Shown here: positions 5,571 through 51,937 of the stretch, one piece after another
Layout: each line of letters starts with the position of its first letter
How positions within the stretch are numbered: position 1 is the first letter of the stretch
Sequence record: MK327931.1
Direction: 5' to 3' (one strand)
Source of the DNA: Escherichia phage vB_EcoM_G17
DNA length: 64,000 nt
Notes under the pieces: model-generated
What the model was told of the DNA's origin: nothing
Seen by the model: only the letters and a program-made list of their open reading frames with translations
Database searches by the model: none
Made by a program: the position numbers and the translations under genes

Positions 5571-6803
5571 TTACTTATACCATTGCATTTCTCTGATATC
5601 AATGATAATTTTTGATGCTAATTTAATGTTTGGTTTTTTGGGAAGTACTGATTTCTTATATAGAACATCACGAATGTATTGTACTTTATCATCGAAATAT
5701 TCTAATACTTCTTCATACTTCCACTTACCATTACGAATATCCATCAACATTTGTGCATCAGGTCGTTTAACTTGAATAATTCCACTCTGTAAAGCTTCTT
5801 CTGCACTATTCAAAAGTCTAATTGTGTGCATAGCATGTTTACAATCGTATCCGTGTTGTGATTCTAAAACAGCACGTTTGGCATTACGATTTTCTTTCCA
5901 TTTATGATAACTTTTCCTATTCTCACTATTCTCCTGATATTCTTTTTCGTTAAATTTTACAATTAGTTCTGGTTTGGTTTTCAACTCTTCAGTACTACGT
6001 TCTTTTGAAAAATAACGCAATGAACCATCATGGTTAATAGTGCTTTCATTAGGATTCTTAACAATCGCAAAAATGTTTTCTCCGTAATGAATTAGTTCAT
6101 AACCATTATTAAAATTCAATAAATTGAAATCACGATCAAGAATTTTTTCAGTAGTGTAGTTATGCACTAATCTTACGAAATGATATTGCTTTAATGGATT
6201 TTTCGAAACTAACTGCAATGATGTATCACGCATATATTTTTCAAAATCAATCTTTTTAGCATTAAATGGATGTAAGTTGGATGTATCTAAACGTTCAACA
6301 AGATACTGTGGGAATGAATCATACATCCACGCAAGAACCTCATCGACAGGGTGTTCTTCTAAAATCTCATTTAATCGTTTTTCAGCAATACGCTCTTTAT
6401 CCATCCAACCGTGATGATTTGTCATACGCTTAATCTGATTATATGCATATCCAGTGTATGAAAATGCAATCTTGGAACTAAGAAGTTTTTGGTTAAATGA
6501 ACGAAGATAGTCATAAATTTCAGTACTTTCCACAATGTGTTCAGGTTCAACCCAAAGTGATTCAAGAATATTAGGGTTAGCTTCAGTGTATAATTTTAAA
6601 TACTGATTCAACTCATAGAATTTAGTATCTTCTTCGCTTTTGTCAGCTACCTCTTTGACCTTATAGAAGGGTGTAAGAATAAATTCTTTATTAGCAAGAA
6701 AAATACCACGATAATCAGTATCACTTTCCGGTGTACTGGTTCCGTAGGCTTGTGACCCAGCCAAGTGTTTCACTATTGTTTGTTCAATATATTGGTTATT
6801 CAT
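5571..6803 (-). CDS. DNA polymerase beta-superfamily nucleotidyltransferase (predicted)
   Basis: N-terminal GSQAYGTSTPESDTDYRG matches the hG[GS]...DxD nucleotidyltransferase signature. Confidence 0.55.
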   Translation of the reverse strand: MNNQYIEQTIVKHLAGSQAYGTSTPESDTDYRGIFLANKEFILTPFYKVKEVADKSEEDTKFYELNQYLKLYTEANPNILESLWVEPEHIVESTEIYDYLRSFNQKLLSSKIAFSYTGYAYNQIKRMTNHHGWMDKERIAEKRLNEILEEHPVDEVLAWMYDSFPQYLVERLDTSNLHPFNAKKIDFEKYMRDTSLQLVSKNPLKQYHFVRLVHNYTTEKILDRDFNLLNFNNGYELIHYGENIFAIVKNPNESTINHDGSLRYFSKERSTEELKTKPELIVKFNEKEYQENSENRKSYHKWKENRNAKRAVLESQHGYDCKHAMHTIRLLNSAEEALQSGIIQVKRPDAQMLMDIRNGKWKYEEVLEYFDDKVQYIRDVLYKKSVLPKKPNIKLASKIIIDIREMQWYK

Positions 6804-8871: not shown

Positions 8872-11601
8872 TTATTTCCAACGTGTACCTGGACCTGATG
8901 GTACACCAGTACTGGCAGGTATCGCTGAACCACGTTTCGTTGTACTTGGACGATATGTCAAAAAACGAGTTACTTTTTCTGTATCAATTGAAGTTATTCC
9001 TGAAGTTCCAGTAACTATCTTACCAATGTAAGTGCTAGTTAAAGATTCATCAATTGTTTCAGTACTAATAACATATGACGCTTTCTTAGTATTCCTGTTC
9101 ATTTGTATATACAAATAGAACGTAGTATTAGCTGGGTTACTTTTTACAGTACTTAAATCAACACTTTGTATAGGTAGTCTGTCGAAAATTCCACCTAAAA
9201 ACACCGGAACTTCACGTGTAAAGTACACTGAGAATCCTTGTGCAACGTCTTGTGATACTACCACAATCTTTTCTTTAACGCTACCATTTCCACTAATTAA
9301 ACCATCCATTTCAGCAGATGTTGTACCAAAAACGCTGAATACAGATTTGGTTTGATAGTCAGAATCTTGAAAATTGTAATATCCAAAACCAACACCAGGA
9401 ATAACACCATGTTGATATGCTGCACCAAGTTGGATGTAACTAGATGATAAAAAACGATTTGATGTTATGACACCATCTACTGTTTTAGCTATCATCATCT
9501 TAAATTGTGCATTACCTGGTTGTGAAAATTGATGAACAGCATCAACACCAATGTAACCAAATCCTGAATATTTTGCAACTGTTAGACCAGTACAACGTTT
9601 CATATATGCTTCAGTAATAATTCCTGTAACAGAACTAAGTGTCTCATATCTAGTACTTACCAATGTAGCTGAAGTTATGTTAGATCCAGATAATACAACA
9701 TCAACTTCGGCATAGATTGCATAACCTTGGTTATTGTTAAGATTATATGCTGAAACTACTGCAATGGATTTAGAAAAAGTATTATCAGGTACATAATATA
9801 ATACAATTTGTCCAGATAGTGTACCAACAATGCCAGAGTTTCCTAGATTAGCAAAAATATCTTGTTTTAATGATTCTAATACCGTTGGTTCTATTGTATA
9901 TGTTTCATCAAATTCTAAAGTATCTGGGTTTAATAATCCACCACTTGTTTTATATACACCTTCAATGAATGATGTTCCATAACATCTAACACTACCATCG
10001 GTATCAACAAGAGAAATCATAGCAGTGTATGTAAAATCATCACCTATTTGTTTACGATTAGATTGTGGTGCAAAACCATTTAATGTAGTATTATTTTGAA
10101 CTGAGTTATATTGATATGTTGGTTGTGAGCCTATTTCAGAAAAAACAGTATTATTATAATTATATGTTACATCATCATACGTACCAGAACATGCTAATAA
10201 TATTTTTCTATTATCGATGAAACGTACACCTAATAGGTTTGCACCAACAGCACTACCAAAAACTGGTAAAACGTTTGCATTTATAACGTTACTTGCGGAT
10301 CTAGTACTAGCAACCCATGAATCAAACGGTGTACCACTAACCTTATATCGTTGTAGACCATAAAATTCAGTTGAACTCCATCTAAATTTAGATGCAAATA
10401 CTAAACCATCTTTGGTTTGACATAAACCACCTGCGTTTCCTAATACACCAGCAGCAGTTGTCCCAGTAAAGTTGACCATATTGATTTCAAATGGGTTAGA
10501 AACTTGAAATCCATTATCATATGAAACTGTAGCAGGAGCACGAGCAGAACCATCTAGTGACATAGATTTTGAGTTTATATTATAAACAAAACTGATACCA
10601 GTACCATACACTGTTGAAATATATAAAGGTGTAACCATTCTATGGGTTGGGTATAAAGTTACACGTATTTTGGATAAATCAGTACTAACGTTTGCTTGTA
10701 TATTAAAGTCTGTATAATCCGAAAATTCTACACGTGAGACTGGTGATGTAACTTCGAATAATGAATCCGAGCTAGTACCAACACTATATAATCTATCAAA
10801 CACTCTTATGTTATTAGATGCAGAATAACTTGTATTTCGAACAGTTTGCCCTGATAATCCAGTAACTTTTGTTAATGATGCCATTGAGCTTGCTTTCACA
10901 TCACTTAGCTCTACTGTATAAATTGAAAGTGCTAATCCTAAATTAGAAACACTTTTATCTTTACACCAAATATATACTTTTGTTCCAACAATATGAGTAT
11001 ATATAGGCATATCATTACCAAAAGAAGTACTTGGTACTTTAGCATGAATATGTGATACTTCGTTGAATGTACCATTAGTTATAGTAAAAATATAATTATC
11101 TTCTGTACTTAAACATCCAAGCATTTCATAACCATTAGAGCCAATAAAATACTTAATATTCTCTGTACTACTCATAATTGAAGGTTTATACATTGAATTG
11201 GTTGAAATAACACTTTCTTGTGAAATCATGGTTATATTTCTGATTTCTCGTATAAATGAATAATAAAAACCTTTAGTACTACCATTGGTTCCGCTACGCA
11301 GAACAACGGCGGTTCCATCATCTTCAATAATTGTTGGCTGAACTACTTGGTCACTTGACATAGGTGTAGCACCTTCATACGACCCACTTACGTTTAATGG
11401 CAAGTAATCCATTTCTCCTACACGTGATATAGGCAACATATCTAAAATACTTTGAACTTCTGAACGCTTATATATTGGATATTGAACAATTCCAGTATTG
11501 GCATTCGGTGAGGTTCCATTAAAAGTACGCATAGCGTACCTTTGTCCAATTGCCAAGTTCCCAAGGATCTCGGCACTTCCTATAATTCGTTTTGATGACA
11601 T
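8872..11601 (-). CDS. tail fibre / receptor-binding protein, paralog 1
   Basis: About 910 aa, Ser/Thr/Gly/Asn-rich; N-terminus (PISxxGxxxYLPxxVSG) and C-terminal ~70 aa (VxRFxTYRPSxTxxGSxxPxSTGxPSxxGT) shared with 12217..14913; start set at Met31 of track ORF (AAGGA SD, 16 nt after upstream stop). Confidence 0.7.
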   Translation of the reverse strand: MSSKRIIGSAEILGNLAIGQRYAMRTFNGTSPNANTGIVQYPIYKRSEVQSILDMLPISRVGEMDYLPLNVSGSYEGATPMSSDQVVQPTIIEDDGTAVVLRSGTNGSTKGFYYSFIREIRNITMISQESVISTNSMYKPSIMSSTENIKYFIGSNGYEMLGCLSTEDNYIFTITNGTFNEVSHIHAKVPSTSFGNDMPIYTHIVGTKVYIWCKDKSVSNLGLALSIYTVELSDVKASSMASLTKVTGLSGQTVRNTSYSASNNIRVFDRLYSVGTSSDSLFEVTSPVSRVEFSDYTDFNIQANVSTDLSKIRVTLYPTHRMVTPLYISTVYGTGISFVYNINSKSMSLDGSARAPATVSYDNGFQVSNPFEINMVNFTGTTAAGVLGNAGGLCQTKDGLVFASKFRWSSTEFYGLQRYKVSGTPFDSWVASTRSASNVINANVLPVFGSAVGANLLGVRFIDNRKILLACSGTYDDVTYNYNNTVFSEIGSQPTYQYNSVQNNTTLNGFAPQSNRKQIGDDFTYTAMISLVDTDGSVRCYGTSFIEGVYKTSGGLLNPDTLEFDETYTIEPTVLESLKQDIFANLGNSGIVGTLSGQIVLYYVPDNTFSKSIAVVSAYNLNNNQGYAIYAEVDVVLSGSNITSATLVSTRYETLSSVTGIITEAYMKRCTGLTVAKYSGFGYIGVDAVHQFSQPGNAQFKMMIAKTVDGVITSNRFLSSSYIQLGAAYQHGVIPGVGFGYYNFQDSDYQTKSVFSVFGTTSAEMDGLISGNGSVKEKIVVVSQDVAQGFSVYFTREVPVFLGGIFDRLPIQSVDLSTVKSNPANTTFYLYIQMNRNTKKASYVISTETIDESLTSTYIGKIVTGTSGITSIDTEKVTRFLTYRPSTTKRGSAIPASTGVPSGPGTRWK

Positions 11602-11617
11602 CTTTCTTTTCCTTAAT

Positions 11618-12205
11618 TTACCAACCAATTGTACCAGTTTCTGATGGTTTTCCAGTACTGACTGGGAATGAAGAACCTTTTTGTGTAACACTAGGTCTAT
11701 ATGTACTAAATCTGGATACTTTATTAATGTTTATATTTGTAATACCACTTGTACCAACGGTCAGTGTTCCAATAAACATTATAATTTCAGATTCTTGTAT
11801 TTGTGTTGGTGATATTTTATAAATTGGTTCACCGAGAACTAACGTTGCATATACATATTGTGTTTGTGTTCCAGATGAAACAGTTGAAGCAAAAATAGAA
11901 ACTGCTGGAAATTTATAAAGATAACCACCAATAAATGATGGTATCTGTCTATTAAATGTAAGACTATAGCCTGATGAAGTAATATTTAGACTAGCGTCAT
12001 CATACAATTCTCCGTATTGTGTAAGTGGTAATCCATTGACAATAAAGTTAACTTCATCTTTGGTAATAGAGGGGAATGTACATTCCCCATTTGAATTTGT
12101 TGGGTAATAAGTCATATTATTACCTAATACACCAAGTCCAGTACTTTTACCCTGTACTGTAACTTGTTGCATTGCCTTAAGGTCTGCTCTTATTTTAAAT
12201 GCCAT
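11618..12205 (-). CDS. short tail-fibre-related protein sharing the conserved C-terminal domain
   Basis: 195 aa; C-terminus KVSRFSTYRPSVTQKGSSFPVSTGKPSETGTIGW aligns with the C-termini of both long fibre proteins. Confidence 0.6.
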   Translation of the reverse strand: MAFKIRADLKAMQQVTVQGKSTGLGVLGNNMTYYPTNSNGECTFPSITKDEVNFIVNGLPLTQYGELYDDASLNITSSGYSLTFNRQIPSFIGGYLYKFPAVSIFASTVSSGTQTQYVYATLVLGEPIYKISPTQIQESEIIMFIGTLTVGTSGITNININKVSRFSTYRPSVTQKGSSFPVSTGKPSETGTIGW

Positions 12206-30476: not shown

Positions 30477-30729
30477 CTACAGTATTAAGCTTCTGACAAA
30501 TCATATCAGCTTCTACTCGGTCTTTATAATAAATGGTAAATCCAAATCTACTTGTTACCCTTTTCTCACTACGGTGTATACAGTTTACAATATAGTACTT
30601 ATTATTTTGTGCAGAAAAACGAACTTCATAATTTCGAAAAGAAGTATTAGGTTCATCCATAGCAACTATATATAACATAAAAATAAAAAACACTGTTATT
30701 AGAAAAGCAATAATAATTATTACTGTCAT
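30472..30729 (-). CDS. small membrane protein
   Basis: 85 aa, N-terminal hydrophobic helix. Confidence 0.45.
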   Translation of the reverse strand: MTVIIIIAFLITVFFIFMLYIVAMDEPNTSFRNYEVRFSAQNNKYYIVNCIHRSEKRVTSRFGFTIYYKDRVEADMICQKLNTVE

Positions 30730-31217
30730 TTATCAAGACCCTTATCATAAATGCAATTAACAATAATTCCAGCATCTTCCAGTACTTTAATAGCTTCTGG
30801 TGGTGTACGAGGATAATTTTTGAGATAAATTACACGTGAAATCCCACTACCTGCGATCAACTTAGAACAAGTATAACATGGTTGTAGTGTTGTGTAAAGA
30901 GTAGCACCTTGACGTTCAGTAGGAGAACTATAGAGTAAAGCGTTCATTTCAGCATGGATTTCATGAATATTACTCCACTCATGATGTTCATGCTTTGCTT
31001 CATCACTAACCCAGTCTTGAAAACGTCCATCATTGACTAAGTGTTGATTCACATCACAACAATTTGGTTGTTTTGATGGAGTACCATTGTATCCAGTACT
31101 CAATACTCGGTTATTTTTAACAATAACACAACCAACTTTTTGTGAAATACATTTACTTTCCTCAGCAACTACTTCTGCTATCTTCAACCAAGTCGTATGT
31201 TTCATTATAAGCTCCAA
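30726..31217 (-). CDS. cd: dCMP deaminase
   Basis: Zinc motifs HAEMNAL and PCYTCSKLI; T4 cd-like length. Confidence 0.85.
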   Translation of the reverse strand: MELIMKHTTWLKIAEVVAEESKCISQKVGCVIVKNNRVLSTGYNGTPSKQPNCCDVNQHLVNDGRFQDWVSDEAKHEHHEWSNIHEIHAEMNALLYSSPTERQGATLYTTLQPCYTCSKLIAGSGISRVIYLKNYPRTPPEAIKVLEDAGIIVNCIYDKGLDK

Positions 31218-42740: not shown

Positions 42741-42997
42741 TGTTCCTCGTATAATTCTATATCATCAACACCAACTTGGCGAATTGCAGTACTTCTGTTG
42801 AATGTATTTTTTTCAAACAAACATACTGTTAAACGTATTTCACACTTCAATGCACTATAATAAATCATATCAATAACACCATATGTTTCATACATTTCTA
42901 CGTATACATTTCGACCTAAATACTTTTCTTCTAAATCAGTAATTAGACTATTGATAAGATTACCTATCTGTGTTATATCTGTGTGAAATTTATCCAT
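42737..42997 (-). CDS. hypothetical protein (small paralog family)
   Basis: 86 aa; LEEKYLGRNVYV motif. Confidence 0.45.
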   Translation of the reverse strand: MDKFHTDITQIGNLINSLITDLEEKYLGRNVYVEMYETYGVIDMIYYSALKCEIRLTVCLFEKNTFNRSTAIRQVGVDDIELYEEQ

Positions 42998-43184
42998 TAT
43001 AATAAACCTCTCACATAAAACATTGATGAAAATAGATAATCATCAGTACTGGAATTTAGTAGTTTATCAAAACTATAATTTTTATGCTTATTTTCATACA
43101 AAGACAATCTATAGTATCGTTCTATATTTTCTAAGTAGTCTTTTTGTAATAACATCTGTGTTGTTACATTCACTATAATGTACC

Positions 43185-43219
43185 TTAAAAGAAAAAGGGA
43201 CCAATATATGATCCCTTTT
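43185..43219 (-). terminator. weak terminator-like hairpin after polynucleotide kinase gene
   Basis: AT-rich stem AAAAGGGA/TCCCTTTT with 11-nt loop and U-rich flank. Confidence 0.3.
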
Positions 43220-43222
43220 GTA

Positions 43223-44155
43223 TTAGAAATTTCCTTCAGCCACTTGGAAAACTTTCAACCCAAGTAGCTTACGCCACATGAATACAACTTGATCGCGGTC
43301 ATCATATACCTTTTTAACATCGTAATGATCAACCACATTTTTCATGTACAGGTCGAATTTTACAACATCATCAGGACGTTTATCATCGATATCTCGCATA
43401 AACAATGCATCGTAAGGAACACCCCAATTCTTAAGCCACTGTTCGGTATCAGCACGACACCCTTCAGTACGCCCACTCATGACGATAATCTTGCGTTTAT
43501 GAAAAACTGCTTCAGCGATAATAGACAAAATAACTTCTTCATCAGGTGTATCCTGAAGAACAGTACTTTCATCGTAAGGATTACGACCCCATTTATGAGC
43601 AAGAGTTCCATCGATATCAACGATGATAGCAGCTTCGCGTGAATTACCATAGTAACCAATGTGTAATGCCTTACTATAATAGTACGTATCTGCCATTGTG
43701 TCAATGATATCATCTTGTACTGAACGCTCACGCTGGAGGTTATATTTCTTACAAAGTTTTACGAACTCTTTAATCTTAAAGAATTCATGAACATCTGCAC
43801 CACGGTCTTCATTAGGTACAAAATCATCATAGAAGTTCTTTTCTTTGTAATCATAACCATTATCTTTAGCCCATACTTTCCAGAGATTACGGAAATGTTG
43901 TTTAAGGTTTGTATCGGATATGATGATGTTCCAACCATTCTCTGCTGCTGAATTTGCTGCACTGAACTGTAAATTAGTTACGTACTGCTCATTAGCATCG
44001 TTGAATTTGTAAGCATCATGTGACCCAGCCATAGATTCACGAATATCATCACGGTTGATGTTGATAGTCTTGGATTTGGCATTTTTAATTTCTTGAACTG
44101 CCCATGTGGTTTTACCACACCCAGGTAATCCAACTGTTAGTGTAATAGTTGGCAT
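43223..44155 (-). CDS. pseT: polynucleotide 5'-kinase / 3'-phosphatase (T4 Pnk-like)
   Basis: N-terminal P-loop LTVGLPGCGKTTWA and C-terminal HAD-type phosphatase motif IVDIDGTLA. Confidence 0.85.
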   Translation of the reverse strand: MPTITLTVGLPGCGKTTWAVQEIKNAKSKTININRDDIRESMAGSHDAYKFNDANEQYVTNLQFSAANSAAENGWNIIISDTNLKQHFRNLWKVWAKDNGYDYKEKNFYDDFVPNEDRGADVHEFFKIKEFVKLCKKYNLQRERSVQDDIIDTMADTYYYSKALHIGYYGNSREAAIIVDIDGTLAHKWGRNPYDESTVLQDTPDEEVILSIIAEAVFHKRKIIVMSGRTEGCRADTEQWLKNWGVPYDALFMRDIDDKRPDDVVKFDLYMKNVVDHYDVKKVYDDRDQVVFMWRKLLGLKVFQVAEGNF

Positions 44156-44167
44156 TATTACTCCTTG

Positions 44168-44482
44168 TTACTCAATGAATTCTACATCTTCGAGTTTGTG
44201 CCATCCTCTTGAAAGGTTTCTTGTTCCGTTATTGTATTCAGTGTATACAAAGCATTCACCATTTACTAAATTACCAATAGCAGTACGCGATACTTTAACA
44301 TCAAGAATTATAGTACTGAACCATTCTCTGATTGTATGATCCCAGCATTTAACTTTACATCCAATCAATGTTTTCTTAAAATCGAAAACGTAATCTTCGA
44401 CCATTGATTCGACAGATTCTATTAGTTCCTTTTCAATGTACTTTAACTTTTCGATCCTCTCAAATGCAAGTTCTTTATTCAT
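44168..44482 (-). CDS. hypothetical protein (small paralog family)
   Basis: 104 aa; LIGCKVKCW motif. Confidence 0.45.
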   Translation of the reverse strand: MNKELAFERIEKLKYIEKELIESVESMVEDYVFDFKKTLIGCKVKCWDHTIREWFSTIILDVKVSRTAIGNLVNGECFVYTEYNNGTRNLSRGWHKLEDVEFIE

Positions 44483-44488
44483 ATGTCC

Positions 44489-44743
44489 TCAATTATCTAG
44501 AACATCCACTATCAAACAAGCTTCAATAACGAAACAATCATCTAATTCAAAGAGTAATTGATAGTCATCAGAAAACTTCACTTTAGTAATGTAAGCACTT
44601 TCAATTCCACCACTATGATAAGAACTATATAAAATACATTTACCTGTATATTCCTTACGGATACGACTAAATTCTTCATATAAATGAGTAATAAACGTAT
44701 CCGCAGTTTTGTTGTAGTATTTTAGGTCACTTACTGTGCTCAT
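44489..44743 (-). CDS. hypothetical protein
   Basis: 84-aa ORF. Confidence 0.4.
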   Translation of the reverse strand: MSTVSDLKYYNKTADTFITHLYEEFSRIRKEYTGKCILYSSYHSGGIESAYITKVKFSDDYQLLFELDDCFVIEACLIVDVLDN

Positions 44744-44957
44744 TAACTTTTCCTACTCCAAATCGTTTGGAGATTTTCACAAGTACAGATTCATCACAAC
44801 GAATACTAGCAGTATCATTGGATGAACTGTACTTTAATGGGGTCCACTGTAATTGAGATTCTTCTAGGAACTTGATACATCTGAAGTAATCTTTCAGAGA
44901 AAGAAATTTAACTACTGACATATCCTGAACAATACTATGCTGAACTTCAACTTTCAT
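44727..44957 (-). CDS. hypothetical protein
   Basis: 76-aa ORF. Confidence 0.35.
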   Translation of the reverse strand: MKVEVQHSIVQDMSVVKFLSLKDYFRCIKFLEESQLQWTPLKYSSSNDTASIRCDESVLVKISKRFGVGKVNEHSK

Positions 44958-44966
44958 ATGAACTCC

Positions 44967-45224
44967 TTATAGTGGATCAAATTTATTTTCACGTTTCGAT
45001 GTATAGCGAGTTACATCATGTATTCTCGGCTTAACACCTTTTGGTTTCCTTTTCTTCTTGTATTCAGTACTACTACATCCGAAGGTATTCTCGATTCGTT
45101 TCTTACTTATCTTCACACCTTTCATTGAGCGTTTGTGCTGTAATTCATCGATTTCTTCTTGTATTTTCCTGAACTCAGTCGGAGAAAGGGAACCGTCATT
45201 TTTATACTTAGGTTTAGCCATCAC
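44967..45224 (-). CDS. small basic protein
   Basis: 85 aa with KKKRKPKGVKP stretch. Confidence 0.4.
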   Translation of the reverse strand: MMAKPKYKNDGSLSPTEFRKIQEEIDELQHKRSMKGVKISKKRIENTFGCSSTEYKKKRKPKGVKPRIHDVTRYTSKRENKFDPL

Positions 45225-45251
45225 TTCTCCTTGTGCTTAGGCTAGATAGTA

Positions 45252-46394
45252 CTAAAAATCCTTTAGTACAATTTTCATGTATTTTATAAGAGTCTCTTTG
45301 TAATCAACTTTCTTATTGTTATACATTGCAAAGGCCAAGCCCTGACGATTCAGTTCATTAGTTAAACACTCCTGAACCTTCATTGCGAATTCCTTTCGCT
45401 CCAAGTGCTTGTGTTCCTTGACGAAGCTTTCTACTTCATCTTGTAATGCATTATAGCACGAAAATACCAATTGTTCCATTCTTAATATCTTTTGCATAGC
45501 ATATTCATCAGTACTGAACAATTGTTTTAAATCATCACTTGAACCATTTAATACTGCTTCATATAAATGAGAATCAATAATAATACTATCTTTTGTAAGA
45601 TGTAATGAACTGTACCAGTCAGTCTTTATTTTACACATTGTCCCATTATTTAGGATGCACACAAAACCCTCAATATCAAGCATTTTATGAACTTCCTCCA
45701 CGCTTTCACGGAAGGTATTTCGTACCGGAAAAGTGTGATGAATATCTTTTCCAGTCATATTAGTACTGTACTGTGCAAGACATGGAAACTTATCACGTAG
45801 TGCTTTACCACATAGCAACTCACCACTCACACGATGACGAACGTTCAGTACAAACAGTTGTTCTACCTGATATGGTAATACAATTCGGTACTCTGGGCTT
45901 GTATACTCCATATTAACTGTGTAACCTAAACGTTCCGCTTCGTCGATGTACTGATACAAATTCTGGTTCTCGTTAATAAGTCGAGTACTGTTAATCGCAT
46001 GGTCAGAATACAATGCAGTATGTGATTTACAACGAATCTCACCATCATTATCACGGTAAGTACTGATAATCGAACCATCCAACTTAGGCATCACTACCGC
46101 AATGTCATCGCATGTGGTGTTAGCAGGGAACATTGTAGCAGGATTCTCGTAAGCATTGAAGAACTTTTTCATTGTACGTGCTGCACAACGTATCATTTCA
46201 CCTTCTTCATCAATTTCCCACATAGAGCCACGGGTTTCCAACGCATTTGGTTGCATGAAATCAGTGTATGATGCTAGACGATAACTGAATACACGATACG
46301 TGCCACCAGCAGGACTTTTATGATCCACATAAAAGAATGCATCGTTTGTATTACATAAGTGCATTAAATCTTCATATATTTGCAAAAGGGTCAT
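45252..46394 (-). CDS. rnlA: RNA ligase 1 (T4 Rnl1-like)
   Basis: Closely parallels T4 Rnl1 as recalled: FFYVDHKSPAGGTYRVFSYRLASYTDF, ALETRGSMWEI, KKFFNAYENP, lysine motif PKLDGSI. Confidence 0.85.
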   Translation of the reverse strand: MTLLQIYEDLMHLCNTNDAFFYVDHKSPAGGTYRVFSYRLASYTDFMQPNALETRGSMWEIDEEGEMIRCAARTMKKFFNAYENPATMFPANTTCDDIAVVMPKLDGSIISTYRDNDGEIRCKSHTALYSDHAINSTRLINENQNLYQYIDEAERLGYTVNMEYTSPEYRIVLPYQVEQLFVLNVRHRVSGELLCGKALRDKFPCLAQYSTNMTGKDIHHTFPVRNTFRESVEEVHKMLDIEGFVCILNNGTMCKIKTDWYSSLHLTKDSIIIDSHLYEAVLNGSSDDLKQLFSTDEYAMQKILRMEQLVFSCYNALQDEVESFVKEHKHLERKEFAMKVQECLTNELNRQGLAFAMYNNKKVDYKETLIKYMKIVLKDF

Positions 46395-46699
46395 TTTATT
46401 ACCTCTATATCTACATCAGTTCCATAATATGATATTAATCCATCATCAGATTCACACTGAATAGACAACTCAGATTCATAGTATGTTACTTTATTCACTG
46501 TTAGTACTTGTTCTTCAATTACTCCAGAAAAATAATTCATCTCACGTACACGAACTTTAGTTCCTTTAGGTAGTTCATCTGAGATTTTTCGAACAAGATC
46601 ATAAGCAGCCTGTTCAAGTGTGTACAGTAATTGTAATCTATCTTGAATATTCATATTATTTCCACCAACTGGTATCACGTCCATTAGACAAAGATTCAT
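46391..46699 (-). CDS. hypothetical protein
   Basis: 102-aa ORF, ATGA overlap with rnlA. Confidence 0.45.
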   Translation of the reverse strand: MNLCLMDVIPVGGNNMNIQDRLQLLYTLEQAAYDLVRKISDELPKGTKVRVREMNYFSGVIEEQVLTVNKVTYYESELSIQCESDDGLISYYGTDVDIEVIK

Positions 46700-48274: not shown

Positions 48275-48556
48275 TTAAATTATTTCATAAAGACAATATA
48301 CACCATCAACGCCAGCATCAGGAAAATCAACATAGAAATTCACACTAACAGTGTCGTAATCTATATCAGTGATTCGTCCGGTTTTACCTACACTTTTTAC
48401 AAATATATCAGACCCAAGATACACAAACTCGAACTCGTCAGCATACTCTTTTATGATATCTGCGAACCTACAACCACACCTAGGTTCTGTGTTAATAATT
48501 TCAAGATATAATGTAATATATTGTTCGTATGTCCATGTGTGTAGATAAAAATCCAT
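48275..48556 (-). CDS. hypothetical protein
   Basis: 93-aa ORF. Confidence 0.45.
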   Translation of the reverse strand: MDFYLHTWTYEQYITLYLEIINTEPRCGCRFADIIKEYADEFEFVYLGSDIFVKSVGKTGRITDIDYDTVSVNFYVDFPDAGVDGVYCLYEII

Positions 48557-48566
48557 AGAAGTTTCC

Positions 48567-49304
48567 TTAGAAATATATCATACCCATCAATTCAGAATCG
48601 GCGGGGCGAGTATAACCTTGCTTCTTAACTTTAAAATAGAATGATTCATGCTCTTCTAAATTATAACGTTTTTTCAAGCAACGAGTGTATGTCTGACAAT
48701 TTGGGTGAACCCATTCATAAATGTGAATGCCATTTTCGTCATAACCATTTATACTACAACGATTTCCTTCATGCTTCATGAAGTTTTTACTTTTTTCAGT
48801 AAATTCTTTCACTGTAGTTGTATATGGGGATTTGTATTCAAAAGGAACTTCAGTCATACGAAAATAATAGTATTCTTCGTCTTCATCATATCCCAAGAGC
48901 ACTGTGTTAGTTTCACGTACATTGTAATGATTCTTACTTTTTAATTCATTTTCGTATATATCTTTCAGTACTTCTGCAAAAACTTCCTCGCTTGATGCAT
49001 TAGGATTAGATACACCTGATACTCGGCGTTCAATAATAAAATCAGTGAATTTACGGTCTTCGGCAATATCTTCGTTCATATAAAGACTAACAAACTTATC
49101 CTTATATGTCTTTACACTATATTGCTTACTTTGCACTTCACTATAAACATCTGCTAACATATTCTCCTGACCACACTGCACACCACTTACAGAATAAGCA
49201 CATGCATGTTCAGCCATTACTGATGTTAACATTTGGAAATTTGCCATGTTTAATTCATTCGCCATCTCTGTAGCGAAACGGATACGGTCAAGCATTTCAC
49301 ACAC
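48567..49304 (-). CDS. hypothetical protein
   Basis: 245-aa ORF. Confidence 0.5.
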   Translation of the reverse strand: MCEMLDRIRFATEMANELNMANFQMLTSVMAEHACAYSVSGVQCGQENMLADVYSEVQSKQYSVKTYKDKFVSLYMNEDIAEDRKFTDFIIERRVSGVSNPNASSEEVFAEVLKDIYENELKSKNHYNVRETNTVLLGYDEDEEYYYFRMTEVPFEYKSPYTTTVKEFTEKSKNFMKHEGNRCSINGYDENGIHIYEWVHPNCQTYTRCLKKRYNLEEHESFYFKVKKQGYTRPADSELMGMIYF

Positions 49305-50342: not shown

Positions 50343-50535
50343 GAACACGCTCACAATTAAGGCAATAAATGCACTCAATGTCAGGTCGCCATGATTTATC
50401 AAAATCTTTGTGTTGTTCTTCGGTGTATTCCGCATCATCATTAATAGGGAAGAAATCACCAGCACCAGTCGCCCAGTCTGAATCTAAACGGAAACGAGCT
50501 AATTGAGTACTGTTACAATATGGACATTTATTCAA
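50335..50535 (-). CDS. zinc-ribbon protein
   Basis: 66 aa; CPYC ... CIYCLNC. Confidence 0.45.
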   Translation of the reverse strand: MNKCPYCNSTQLARFRLDSDWATGAGDFFPINDDAEYTEEQHKDFDKSWRPDIECIYCLNCERVHD

Positions 50536-50812
50536 AATTTATTCCTTCTAACTGATATACGTTTAATGAAAATGACCCACTATTATTATCGCATCTGAAA
50601 CACAGTGTTAAAGAACCATTAAAACTAACTACATCCGTACAGATACATTTTTCACCATTGGATATGATAGATTTTCCTATATATAAATCTCTTACTATAG
50701 TACGGTAATGTTGCCATAAAAAATAATACACACTTTCATAGTACTCATCTTTTACATATGATAAGTATAAGAATTTATAAAATACTTGTATTTCCTTTAA
50801 GTTGTTTTTCAT
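50528..50812 (-). CDS. hypothetical protein, tandem ~90-aa paralog array
   Basis: N-terminal EIQVFYKFLYLSY and DLYIGKSIIS motifs. Confidence 0.5.
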   Translation of the reverse strand: MKNNLKEIQVFYKFLYLSYVKDEYYESVYYFLWQHYRTIVRDLYIGKSIISNGEKCICTDVVSFNGSLTLCFRCDNNSGSFSLNVYQLEGINFE

Positions 50813-51086
50813 TCTTCAATTCCAGTAAATTTACACCAATCCAATCAACATCACTATCAGTACTTAATTCCAATCGTAGCTTACCGCTATGACTAACAAT
50901 ATCGCGGAATTTGTATATTTTATTATCACGAACTATACACAAATCATGGTAATATTCATGTAATTCATCCAAAAACTTTATCCATACCGAACGATAGATT
51001 TCACTGTAGAGATATTCTCCAGCATCAACCGTAGCGTATTGGATATACAAAAATTTGTATGTGAATTGTATATCATTTAATAACAT
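50775..51086 (-). CDS. hypothetical protein, tandem ~90-aa paralog array
   Basis: N-terminal LNDIQFTYKFLYIQY. Confidence 0.5.
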   Translation of the reverse strand: MLLNDIQFTYKFLYIQYATVDAGEYLYSEIYRSVWIKFLDELHEYYHDLCIVRDNKIYKFRDIVSHSGKLRLELSTDSDVDWIGVNLLELKNEKQLKGNTSIL

Positions 51087-51096
51087 ATGTAACCTC

Positions 51097-51408
51097 TTAT
51101 AAATTCACCAACTTCACAACTTTAATCTCGATAAATCCCCTATCGGTTATTTCCTGAAATTGAACATGGATTATACCATTATATGATTGCACACCATAGA
51201 AATCGAATTTATCATTTCCATCGATAAAAGTACTGTAATTCTTTTTTATATATTCACCTACTGAATCTAAGTACTCAATATATAAATCAATAAATGGTTG
51301 TTCTTTGGATCGGTTATGTGAACCTATGTTGTTACTAACAAGGTATACATCATACAAATCATATAGGATCTTATAAGTGAATTGTATATCATTTAAATTT
51401 AATCCCAA
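51097..51408 (-). CDS. hypothetical protein, tandem ~90-aa paralog array
   Basis: N-terminal LNDIQFTYKILYDLY. Confidence 0.5.
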   Translation of the reverse strand: MGLNLNDIQFTYKILYDLYDVYLVSNNIGSHNRSKEQPFIDLYIEYLDSVGEYIKKNYSTFIDGNDKFDFYGVQSYNGIIHVQFQEITDRGFIEIKVVKLVNL

Positions 51409-51665
51409 GGGAATATCTCCAACGGAATACTGGTAAATCCAAAATCAGTGTAGTACTGAACCTCAACTTTACCATCACGTCTAATGATTATATCAGAAAA
51501 TTCTGCATGGTCATCACCAATAATAACAGTACTGAATTTTTTTTTAATCTTACCACGAATCGTATGAATCATTTCAGTGCATGTGTCTTCTAGACTAGGG
51601 CTATCATTGTCGTGTGCTAAATCTCGAATAATCTTGTATGTTAGTAGGAAATCTTTATAATTCAT
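51399..51665 (-). CDS. hypothetical protein, tandem ~90-aa paralog array
   Basis: N-terminal DFLLTYKIIRDL. Confidence 0.5.
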   Translation of the reverse strand: MNYKDFLLTYKIIRDLAHDNDSPSLEDTCTEMIHTIRGKIKKKFSTVIIGDDHAEFSDIIIRRDGKVEVQYYTDFGFTSIPLEIFPWD

Positions 51666-51937
51666 ATGTCCACCAAATCTATACTATATCTTTCATTAGT
51701 ATTACTATCTATAAATGATAGTACTAATTTACCACCAAAACTATTAACTTGTTCTATCTTCTGTTTTTTACCACGAATGATTATCTCACTATTAACAAAA
51801 TATTCACGTATCATTATTAAGTGATTAATCCAGATAGTATGAGTGAATGTGTTTTCTCGTATTGTATTGAGATATCTTCCATTGTGATGTAAATCAAACA
51901 AAACACTGTATGTATATTGTAGAACTTTATAATTCAT
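51662..51937 (-). CDS. hypothetical protein, tandem ~90-aa paralog array
   Basis: N-terminal YKVLQYTYSVLFDL. Confidence 0.5.
   Translation of the reverse strand: MNYKVLQYTYSVLFDLHHNGRYLNTIRENTFTHTIWINHLIMIREYFVNSEIIIRGKKQKIEQVNSFGGKLVLSFIDSNTNERYSIDLVDI

Follow-up and report, generated by a model that had tools for sequence, protein, structure and literature searches.

The repair of broken tRNA by a polynucleotide kinase/phosphatase (Pnk) and RNA ligase 1 (Rnl1) is known from phage T4 (Amitsur et al. 1987, as cited in PMC12409363). Few phage counter-defences are better known than this widespread pair, and earlier work has described it in the clade of RaK2-like jumbo phages, so one more instance adds little by itself. 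The 2013 paper on phage RaK2 names the pair a tRNA-repair pathway (PMC3622015). For jumbo phages in general the pathway is described in the review of Iyer et al. 2021 (PMC7824862), which covers Rnl1, PNK-HAD, RlaP and CCA-adding enzymes. In the literature on RaK2-like phages we found no mention of the gp519/gp520 pair, the gp519-pnk cassette or the motif Ia substitution that are described below.

Is the pair in the present locus the same system, and what are the small genes that lie between its two members? The locus was analysed in a stretch of 64,000 nucleotides (the window) from Escherichia phage vB_EcoM_G17 (MK327931.1), which is an Asteriusvirus, that is, a RaK2-like jumbo phage. Gene products are numbered as in Escherichia phage Sharanji (GenBank OR545507.1).

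Organization of the locus

The preliminary description had placed six open reading frames between 43223 and 46394, and the ORF list holds all six at these positions, every one on the minus strand (Table 1). The four small ones, gp517-gp520, are real genes, for a Shine-Dalgarno sequence precedes every one of them and their dN/dS values against phage ph0011 lie within 0.07-0.25. For gp520 there are two alternative starts, GTG 45224 (85 aa, ORF 44967-45224) and ATG 45221 (84 aa). The ATG is most likely the true one, since it stands 5 nt after AAGGAG and GenBank annotates the gene from there.

Table 1. Features of the rnl-pnk region, in positions of the window
Feature	Position	Strand	Remarks
gp522	46391..46699	-	102 aa; ORF list; PHROG 28139
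Rnl1 (gp521; T4 RnlA / gene 63 orthologue)	45252..46394	-	380 aa
gp520	44967..45221	-	84 aa
gp519	44727..44957	-	76 aa
gp518	44489..44743	-	84 aa, acidic
gp517	44168..44482	-	104 aa; PHROG 31355
Pnk (gp516; T4 PseT orthologue)	43223..44155	-	310 aa
Intrinsic-terminator-like hairpin	43193..43219	-	11 pairs, then U tract; terminator scan

From rnl to pnk the gene starts overlap or are closely spaced, with Shine-Dalgarno sites, and rnl, gp520, gp519, gp518, gp517 and pnk appear to be co-transcribed as one tight unit that would end at the terminator behind pnk. The hairpin found there begins 4 nt past the pnk stop codon and probably ends the transcription unit. A hairpin with a U tract, of other sequence, is found at the same position in ph0011, PBECO4, Yen9-04, RaK2, GAP32 and contig L009. 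At the other end, the stop of gp522 overlaps the rnl start by 4 nt, so the two genes are likely to be co-translated. gp522, the small gene just upstream of rnl, and RaK2 gp072 are members of one small-protein family (phmmer, 2.7e-5), and jackhmmer and phmmer link gp517, as a distant relative, to both.

The two repair enzymes

Pnk has two domains, a P-loop kinase at the N-terminus and a HAD (DxDGT) phosphatase at the C-terminus. It matches Pfam HAD_PNKP with 8.6e-44 (149.6 bits, cut-off 27.6) and AAA_33 with 3.6e-13, and in PHROG it falls into family 505 (polynucleotide kinase, 1e-95). Its residues 2-310 are collinear with residues 2-301 of the T4 Pnk structure 1ltq_A (phmmer, E 2.7e-40), and by this alignment it is a full-length orthologue of T4 Pnk. 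The kinase residues K15, T16, D36, R39 and R142 correspond to T4 K15, S16, D35, R38 and R126, where T16 is a conservative GKT variant of the P-loop, and the phosphatase residues D180, D182, R191, R229, D262 and D286 correspond to T4 D165, D167, R176, R213, D254 and D278. Thus 11/11 catalytic residues of T4 Pnk (5 kinase and 6 phosphatase) are kept, and the same holds for essentially all of the 17 RaK2-like and 37 other Pnk sequences compared. The 17 RaK2-like loci have, in addition, an insertion of 17-20 residues in the kinase domain. The dN/dS of pnk is 0.094.

The same ORF is labelled as zeta toxin in GenBank OR545507.1, and the Sharanji genome paper states it to be one (PMC11895373). A weak match to Pfam Zeta_toxin over residues 2-102 (E 4e-4) speaks for the label. 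However, its 20.2 bits are below the Pfam cut-off of 22.3, to be compared with the 149.6 bits of HAD_PNKP, and it covers only the generic P-loop kinase part of a protein that, with its C-terminal HAD phosphatase, is not a single-domain kinase. The whole of gp516 aligns with T4 Pnk, the catalytic residues of both activities included, and the records of PBECO4, BF17 and others give the name polynucleotide kinase to proteins 99-100% identical to it. That ORF 43223-44155 encodes a zeta toxin acting in lysis is therefore hardly conceivable; the sub-threshold score and the full alignment refute it, and the published mis-annotation of a "zeta toxin" lysis protein in Sharanji is here corrected to polynucleotide kinase/phosphatase.

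Rnl1 matches Pfam RNA_lig_T4_1 (1e-15) and, at residues 268-379, T4_Rnl1_C (6.6e-17), the C-terminal domain that confers tRNA specificity on T4 Rnl1 (PMC6379707). It scores 293.2 bits with the NCBIfam equivalog TIGR02308, above the cut-off of 242.25, and matches the T4 Rnl1 structure 2c5u with 1e-56. By these matches, which like those of Pnk are far stronger than chance would give, gp521 is a ligase of the T4 RnlA family. K104 of motif I (KLDG) is predicted to be the nucleophile, and the residues specific to the N-terminal subdomain of Rnl1 as well as motifs IV and V are present. R55, K77, F79, K104, D106 and G107 correspond to T4 R54, K75, F77, K99, D101 and G102, and E163, E242, G243, K255, K257 and Y261 to T4 E159, E227, G228, K240, K242 and Y246. 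These 12 active-site positions, from which motif Ia is excepted, are invariant across the 80 loci compared. The dN/dS of rnl is 0.067.

The exception is motif Ia, which reads K123-S124-H125 in gp521 instead of K-S-K (the T4 counterpart being S118-K119), so the lysine that is otherwise invariant in this motif is missing. At the position of T4 K119, 11/17 RaK2-like ligases have His and 6/17 have Gln; all 63 of the other 63 Rnl1 homologues have Lys. K119 of T4 Rnl1 is reportedly essential, a result that is attributed to Wang, Ho and Shuman in JBC in 2003. In the related fungal ligase Trl1-LIG the equivalent lysine contacts the beta-gamma/gamma phosphates of ATP, and a part in binding the RNA 5'-phosphate has been proposed for it (PMC6379707). 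Given these roles elsewhere, its replacement may have altered or weakened the chemistry of the RaK2-like ligases. The change is treated here as a clade-specific variant of the active site and not as an exclusion from the Rnl1 family by descent.

The preliminary description was thus right about both gene identities and about the analogy with T4. The two proteins are orthologues of the T4 enzymes with their domain architecture, the C-terminal domain of Rnl1 included; the catalytic residues are kept with the one exception in Rnl1, and the genes are syntenic and under purifying selection.

The genes between rnl and pnk

The four intervening genes fall into two pairs of different history. gp519 and gp520 are present in 17/17 RaK2-like Rnl1 loci and in 0/63 others (gp520 by HMM), and the order rnl, gp520, gp519, pnk is found in every RaK2-like isolate and metagenomic contig examined. 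gp519 is the most conserved component of the module, exceeding both enzymes across genera, with a dN/dS of 0.07; its fold is a small ACT-like alpha/beta sandwich (strand-strand-helix-strand-strand-helix), and in GAP32, Yen9-04 and contig L009 its stop and the start of pnk overlap. gp520 is very basic (pI 10.1, 24 K+R), with a dN/dS of 0.12. Its AF2 model (pLDDT 80, pTM 0.46) has a long helix at 14-45, a short one at 51-58 and unstructured ends, and 0/56 members of its family have a Pfam domain. The gp520 of RaK2 is truncated and only 32% identical. No recognisable RNA-binding or catalytic domain was found in gp519 or gp520, and their fold matches are generic.

The pair gp517 and gp518, on the other hand, forms a replaceable cassette restricted to Asteriusvirus (121Q/Sharanji-type). 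Its boundaries lie at 44156 and 44739, with flanks 98-99.5% identical to PBECO4-type genomes, in which the whole cassette is swapped for a single allele 34% identical to gp517. Two allele classes of gp517 are seen, one comprising 12 records with 89-100% identity and the other 19 records with 34-38%. For gp518 tblastn gave matches in only 12 phage records; PBECO4-type genomes lack it, and it has no match in PHROG, Pfam, NCBIfam or PADLOC. In RaK2 three different small ORFs occupy the slot. The family of gp517 consists of small proteins dispersed along this arm of the genome; links of paralogy for gp518 are weak (E about 0.015 in a small database). The dN/dS values of 0.18 for gp517 and 0.25 for gp518 indicate purifying selection that is less strict.

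It had been suggested that the small ORFs could be accessory factors. For gp519 and gp520, constrained and present throughout the clade, the suggestion is reasonable; for gp517 and gp518, a genus-specific swappable cassette, no link to RNA repair is evident. Position alone is weak evidence, because the corresponding interval of T4-like phages holds alc and the spanin genes Rz/Rz1, which are unrelated to repair.

A proposed repair pathway and its alternatives

We consider the module a T4-type "heal and seal" RNA repair system of a RaK2-like jumbo phage, with a probability of about 0.7. Enzymatic activity, a tRNA substrate and a role in counter-defence are what we infer for the pair. The substrate would be a tRNA cut in the anticodon loop, with a 2',3'-cyclic phosphate or 3'-phosphate at one end and a 5'-OH at the other. 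The C-terminal HAD phosphatase of Pnk would strip the phosphate on the 3' side and its N-terminal P-loop kinase would phosphorylate the 5'-OH; Rnl1 would then adenylylate itself on K104, pass the AMP to the 5'-phosphate and seal the break. The pathway probably serves to reverse cleavage by the host's anticodon nucleases (PrrC, RloC or colicin E5/D type). gp519 and gp520 would be conserved members of the unit throughout the clade, and gp517 and gp518 are probably unrelated to repair. Sharanji has seven tRNAs, with no tRNA-Lys among them (PMC11895373), and tRNA-Lys is the target of PrrC (PMC12409363). Repair would thus be the only evident route of this phage against an attack of the PrrC type.

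Could the two enzymes have been kept for something else? T4 gene 63 has a tail-fibre-attachment activity that is independent of the ligase. The rnl gene might be retained mainly for tail-fibre attachment, or for housekeeping repair of the RNA ends of phage or host and not as a counter-defence, with Pnk acting in general end-healing, including as a DNA 3'-phosphatase. PHROG 562 is named "RNA ligase and tail fiber protein attachment catalyst", the tail-fibre apparatus of RaK2-like phages is elaborate (PMC7824862), the phage encodes nucleases of its own such as a PIN-PhoH fusion, and the loss of the motif Ia lysine throughout the clade points the same way. But strong purifying selection keeps all the other adenylyltransferase residues as well as the tRNA-specificity domain strictly conserved, which would be unexpected if ligase catalysis were dispensable, and healing followed by sealing agrees with the conserved linkage of rnl to the gene of an intact Pnk and with the likely co-transcription of the two. 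We consider such a non-ligase or housekeeping role very unlikely. For gp517 and gp518 the question is a different one, whether a recombination hot spot has here taken up cargo genes for anti-defence or host takeover that have nothing to do with the repair of RNA. The wholesale replacement of the cassette between nearly unchanged flanks, the other ORFs in the RaK2 slot, the less strict purifying selection and the kin of gp517 scattered over the genome arm are consistent with cargo. Neither protein, however, matches a known anti-defence or defence family in Pfam, PHROG, PADLOC or NCBIfam, and the paralogy of gp518 is weak. The proposal is a possible but tentative one.

There is a further question, whether the module has four components, with gp519, gp520 or both serving the repair enzymes as dedicated subunits or regulators. 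Their task might be to recruit tRNA or to provide in trans the phosphate binding lost with the lysine of motif Ia, and the RaK2-like system would then be a mechanistic variant of the T4 pathway. Their co-occurrence with the motif Ia His/Gln and the Pnk insertion is perfect. The low dN/dS of gp519 and its conservation above that of the enzymes, the overlap of its stop with the pnk start, the constant gene order, and the basicity and long helix of gp520, which would fit nucleic-acid binding, all agree with such a role. On the other side, all 17 loci come from one clade; common descent confounds the co-occurrence, which counts as one evolutionary event only, and RaK2-like genomes are broadly syntenic anyway. 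The repair-unrelated genes in the same interval of T4-like phages, the lack of a recognisable RNA-binding or catalytic domain in either protein, and the truncated gp520 of RaK2 weigh against it as well. We regard dedicated subunits or regulators as rather doubtful. A modified four-protein T4 pathway in RaK2-like phages, with an altered Rnl1, an insertion in Pnk and gp519 and gp520 as obligate partners with a possible part in recruiting broken tRNA or in complementing or regulating the ligase, is an unlikely reading too. There is a testable oddity, that ligases of a whole clade are without the lysine reportedly essential in T4 and the same clade always carries gp519 and gp520. If these two prove to be repair cofactors, the textbook pathway of two enzymes would be extended, and there would be a handle on jumbo phages against tRNA-targeting defences (PrrC, RloC, PARIS, Retron-Eco7, Cas13a).

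Distribution and host range

Homologues of Rnl1 were found in 1,586 phage records and those of Pnk in 1,966; the pair is present in about 1,600-2,000 phage genomes. Among the 75 Rnl1 loci with enough flanking sequence, 55 have pnk downstream on the same strand within 4 kb of rnl. The pair is found in every RaK2-like jumbo phage examined, with hosts in Escherichia, Klebsiella, Cronobacter, Yersinia, Serratia, Erwinia, Pectobacterium, Salmonella and Xanthomonas. The close linkage of rnl and pnk is ancestral synteny that they share with T4-like phages.

Does the pair tell anything about the hosts of the source phage? The preliminary description took it to imply a host range that includes strains with tRNA-cleaving defences. 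This is unsupported, since a widespread pair that is inherited across the clade is uninformative on the host range of Sharanji itself, which was isolated on E. coli K-12 MG1655. No anticodon nuclease is known in this isolation host, which speaks against a role of the pair in counter-defence. The linkage, as inherited synteny, gives no evidence about the host range of the source phage.

Comparison with known systems

The closest described relatives are rnlA/pseT of RaK2, GAP32, 121Q, PBECO4, CBB and Yen9-04, which are the same module; identity is 99-100% in the closest Asteriusvirus phages (PBECO4, BF17) and 58-64% in other RaK2-like genera. Bacterial Pnkp/Hen1 and Pnkp1-Rnl-Hen1 systems share the logic of healing and then sealing, and Pnkp1 (PDB 4xrp) is the second-best structure match to Pnk (1.2e-31); in contrast to them, this module has no Hen1 methyltransferase, and its ligase is a separate protein of the Rnl1 family. 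With T4 PseT and RnlA, which counter PrrC, the likeness covers both proteins, orthologous over their full length at about 35% identity with the same domain architectures, all catalytic residues of Pnk and all but one of Rnl1, and the same order and strand, with rnl upstream, pnk downstream and small genes between them. The differences from T4 are motif Ia, K-S-H or K-S-Q in the RaK2-like phages and K-S-K in T4; T4 Q126, replaced by His throughout the RaK2-like clade; the insertion of 17-20 residues in the kinase domain of Pnk; and the intervening genes, which in T4 are alc, Rz, Rz1 and pseT.1, non-homologous to gp520, gp519, gp518 and gp517. On the whole, the locus is a known system with what may be a modest clade-specific twist.

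Results

The 5 kb around the kinase and ligase genes match Escherichia phage Sharanji (OR545507.1, Asteriusvirus, 350 kb), whose isolation host is E. coli K-12 MG1655, at 100% identity, and about 30 further Asteriusvirus genomes, including 121Q and PBECO4, at 90-99.7%. Gene numbers used here (gp516 to gp525) are those of Sharanji, and a window position equals the OR545507.1 position minus 271,630. The window has a GC content of about 33%, and nearly all of its genes are encoded by the minus strand. The preliminary description placed six ORFs here, a kinase and a ligase with four small ORFs between them, and every one of them appears in the ORF list with exactly the same limits. Each of the six genes is preceded by a Shine-Dalgarno sequence, and neighbouring genes lie 6-30 nt apart or overlap. 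The last small ORF, gp520, probably starts, as in GenBank, at ATG 45221 after AAGGAG, rather than at GTG 45224. Searches of the entire window for tRNA genes and Rfam families gave no match.

Coordinates of the repair locus and of other features in the window
Position	Strand	Feature	Details
5571-6803	-	RlaP-family nucleotidyltransferase ("RNA ligase-associating Pol-beta")	410 aa; PF10127, 4.9e-16; 38 kb from rnl
8872-11691	-	large paralogue	939 aa
12217-14913	-	large paralogue	898 aa
24651-26090	-	PIN-domain nuclease fused to PhoH-like ATPase	Pfam PIN_4, 7e-20; PhoH, 7e-44
30726-31205	-	deaminase	PF00383, 5e-22
42997-43173	-	small ORF	58 aa; PHROG 38284, 1e-40
43193-43219	-	hairpin and U tract	GC-rich, strong
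43223-44155	-	gp516, pnk	polynucleotide kinase/phosphatase
44156-44739		mosaic segment with gp517 and gp518	584 bp
44168-44482	-	gp517	104 aa
44489-44743	-	gp518	84 aa
44727-44957	-	gp519	
44967-45221	-	gp520	pI 10.1
45252-46394	-	gp521, rnl	RNA ligase 1 (Rnl1)
46391-46699	-	gp522	
48268-48249		second terminator-like hairpin	
48275-48556		small ORF	
48567-49304	-	protein upstream of the rnl unit	245 aa
49792-50082		small ORF	
50528-51937	-	five tandem small ORFs	88-103 aa each

Is gp516 a polynucleotide kinase or a toxin? It is labelled "zeta toxin" in the Sharanji GenBank record (WNN14797.1), and the genome paper puts it under that name among the lysis proteins (PMC11895373). This label is wrong: the match scores 20.2 bits, below the 22.3-bit cut-off, and covers the generic P-loop part alone. 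The ORF matches Pfam HAD_PNKP (8.6e-44), a P-loop kinase domain and PHROG 505 "polynucleotide kinase" (1e-95), and the T4 Pnk crystal structure aligns to its residues 2-310 (2.7e-40). All catalytic residues of T4 Pnk, five of the kinase and six of the phosphatase (K15, T16, D36, R39, R142, D180, D182, R191, R229, D262 and D286), are kept, and they are conserved in essentially all of the 54 Pnk sequences compared. In PBECO4, BF17 and other close relatives, proteins of 99-100% identity are annotated as polynucleotide kinase. Judged from its sequence, gp516 is a T4-type polynucleotide kinase/phosphatase. Both repair genes are under strong purifying selection, with dN/dS against phage ph0011 of 0.094 for pnk and 0.067 for rnl.

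Similarly, gp521 matches both Rnl1 Pfam domains, the C-terminal one included, reaches 293 bits with the NCBIfam equivalog model of T4 RnlA (curated cut-off 242) and matches T4 Rnl1 structures at about 1e-56. It keeps the lysine nucleophile K104 (KLDG), motifs IV and V and the residues of the N-terminal subdomain. Domains, structures and catalytic residues thus give good support by homology to the T4-type RNA-repair pair of the preliminary description. A weak BLAST match of the Rnl1 C-terminal region to the 939-aa ORF (20% identity, E 9e-4) is probably spurious. That ORF and the 898-aa one are paralogues of each other (27% identity over about 950 residues, E 4e-60), and no Pfam match was found for either.

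One catalytic position differs in the RaK2-like jumbo phages, the clade of Asteriusvirus, RaK2, GAP32 and Yen9-04. At the motif Ia lysine (T4 K119) Sharanji has H125, and among 80 Rnl1 loci sampled from IMG/VR all 17 RaK2-like ones carry His (11) or Gln (6), against Lys in 63/63 of the others. No other basic residue of Rnl1 conserved to at least 90% outside the clade has been lost within it; the position of T4 Q126 is His throughout the clade. Wang, Ho and Shuman are said to have found in 2003 that K119 is essential in T4 Rnl1. In Trl1-LIG, a related ligase of fungi, the lysine of motif Ia makes contact with the beta-gamma and gamma phosphates of ATP, and it has been proposed as the binder of the RNA 5'-phosphate (PMC6379707). 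Since all other catalytic residues are intact and strongly constrained, we think that the RaK2-like Rnl1 would still be a ligase, in which His or Gln forms a hydrogen bond to the phosphate. Clade-specific compensation in cis by Arg at T4 position 115 was considered and rejected: this Arg is fixed in the clade, yet common elsewhere (18/63). Basic gains specific to the clade occur at T4 positions 184 and 290, unplaced relative to the active site. Pnk also has a feature of its own in this clade, 17-20 extra residues inserted into the kinase domain (about residues 100-125), so that 57-60 residues separate T4 positions 86 and 126, compared with 39-42 in nearly all other Pnk sequences.

A terminator scan found the hairpin and U tract beginning 4 nt past the pnk stop. 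A hairpin of different sequence stands at the same place in six relatives belonging to four additional genera (comparison sequences L002, L003, L004, L005, L009 and L012), making five RaK2-like genera overall; none was found after pseT in T4-like RB3 and JEC. We infer one transcription unit from about 48.2 kb to this terminator, in the order gp525, gp524, gp523, gp522, rnl, gp520, gp519, gp518, gp517, pnk. Matches to sigma-70-type promoters did not exceed those in shuffled sequence (41 vs 48 ± 7), and no promoter is claimed. The small ORF just past the terminator is annotated in PBECO4 and not in the Sharanji record.

Could the four small ORFs be one group of accessory factors or inhibitors, as the preliminary description suggested? 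They fall into two sets: gp519 and gp520 are fixed in the module, and gp517 and gp518 are tied to nothing in RNA repair. The latter two are a replaceable cassette of Asteriusvirus only. Their segment is without DNA similarity to PBECO4-type genomes, and its flanks are 98-99.5% identical, with a sharp mosaic boundary. PBECO4-type genomes fill the slot with one protein of 104 aa that shares 34% identity with gp517, and RaK2 has three unrelated small ORFs; in GAP32 and Yen9-04 the slot is empty and an extra ORF lies between the gp520 and gp519 homologues. RaK2 gp072 provides a distant link between gp517 and the small gene directly upstream of rnl, and gp518 shows marginal paralogy links alone to neighbouring small ORFs (E about 0.015). 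Both are real genes, because they are under purifying selection (dN/dS 0.18 and 0.25). Neither matched a known defence or anti-defence family in Pfam, PHROG, PADLOC or NCBIfam, and the PADLOC defence and anti-defence models matched none of the ten proteins of the rnl-pnk unit. A GAP32-like metagenomic contig carries, some 3 kb upstream of rnl, a gene matching Gad2 (L009:1-913; PF26128, anti-Gabija family); no homologue was found in the window.

By tblastn, gp519 (76 aa) and gp520 (84 aa) occur in RaK2-like phages of Escherichia, Klebsiella, Cronobacter, Yersinia, Serratia, Erwinia, Pectobacterium, Salmonella and Xanthomonas. At every locus with gene context examined they lie between rnl and pnk, and the order rnl, gp520, gp519, pnk recurs in three metagenomic contigs. 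HMM searches found both at 17/17 RaK2-like Rnl1 loci and at 0/63 others. Across genera gp519 is 66-70% identical, compared with 58-64% for Rnl1 or Pnk, and a dN/dS of 0.07 puts it level with the ligase; in GAP32, Yen9-04 and contig L009 the start of pnk overlaps the gp519 stop. This family is tiny, with 30 clusters at 90% identity. When 1.84 billion cluster representatives were searched with a gp519 profile, 3 clusters matched convincingly and no distant relatives were detected; five further matches, long proteins hit in several short stretches, were judged spurious.

Other genes of the window

The RlaP-family gene is likely a further part of the phage RNA-repair toolkit; no ligase was found beside it. 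The deaminase is annotated as "tRNA-specific adenosine deaminase" and matches the generic cytidine/dCMP deaminase zinc-binding family and MafB19-like deaminases alone. The 245-aa protein is without Pfam match; in RaK2, GAP32 and Yen9-04 its counterparts occupy the corresponding place and share 61-83% identity among themselves. The five tandem small ORFs are weakly paralogous (24-30% identity), and relaxed thresholds tie them to the two small ORFs at 48-50 kb listed in the table and to RaK2 gp066 and gp067; this arm of the genome seems rich in expanded small-protein families.

Discussion

What, then, are gp519 and gp520? The motif Ia change, the Pnk insertion and these two genes all occur in the RaK2-like clade and in that clade alone. 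This is suggestive; it amounts to a single evolutionary event and is therefore not statistical evidence. Our estimate of the probability that the two proteins truly serve as repair cofactors is about 0.2. An origin as remnants of LAGLIDADG homing endonucleases is hinted at by weak Pfam LAGLIDADG_3 matches of three gp520 homologues and weak fold matches of gp519 to WhiA and LAGLIDADG proteins; it is rejected on account of strong purifying selection and cross-genus conservation. The very basic gp520 also has a stretch, GVSSTMYKK, similar to a recognition-helix motif. A small helix-turn-helix regulator is not supported: the AF2 model gives one continuous long helix and a short one with unstructured ends, and no Pfam HTH matches even at E <= 5. 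T4 PseT.1 has the size of gp519 and its place just upstream of pnk; homology was rejected, with no BLAST or HMM similarity and a PseT.1 that looks all-helical.

The preliminary description also read the pair as a sign that the host range includes strains with tRNA-cleaving defences. This does not follow, since all RaK2-like phages have inherited the pair, irrespective of host genus, and it therefore makes no statement about Sharanji's particular hosts. The seven tRNAs of Sharanji (Thr, Asn, Met, Arg, Gly and two Ser) do not include tRNA-Lys (PMC11895373), a small point that fits a repair strategy.

In T4, cleavage of tRNA-Lys by PrrC is reversed by Pnk and Rnl1 (Amitsur et al. 1987, as cited in PMC12409363). 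In the RaK2-like clade the system is already known: the 2013 RaK2 genome paper suggested that its kinase and ligase may form a tRNA-repair pathway (PMC3622015), and a review by Iyer et al. (2021) covers the Rnl1, PNK-HAD, RlaP and CCA-adding enzymes of jumbo phages (PMC7824862). Homologues of Rnl1 occur in 1,586 phage records and those of Pnk in 1,966, and among the 75 sampled loci with enough flank, 55 have Pnk downstream of Rnl1 on the same strand within 4 kb. T4-like RB3 and JEC share the layout, with the order rnlA, alc, pseT.3 (Rz), pseT.2 (Rz1), pseT.1, one more ORF, pseT; thus ligase and kinase with small ORFs between them is an ancestral synteny, and in T4-like phages the genes in between are unconnected with RNA repair. 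From all of these the pair is very ordinary in phages. What the present analysis adds to it is the corrected annotation of gp516, the distinction between a conserved pair (gp519 and gp520) and a variable cassette (gp517 and gp518) among the small ORFs, and the motif Ia substitution found throughout the clade.
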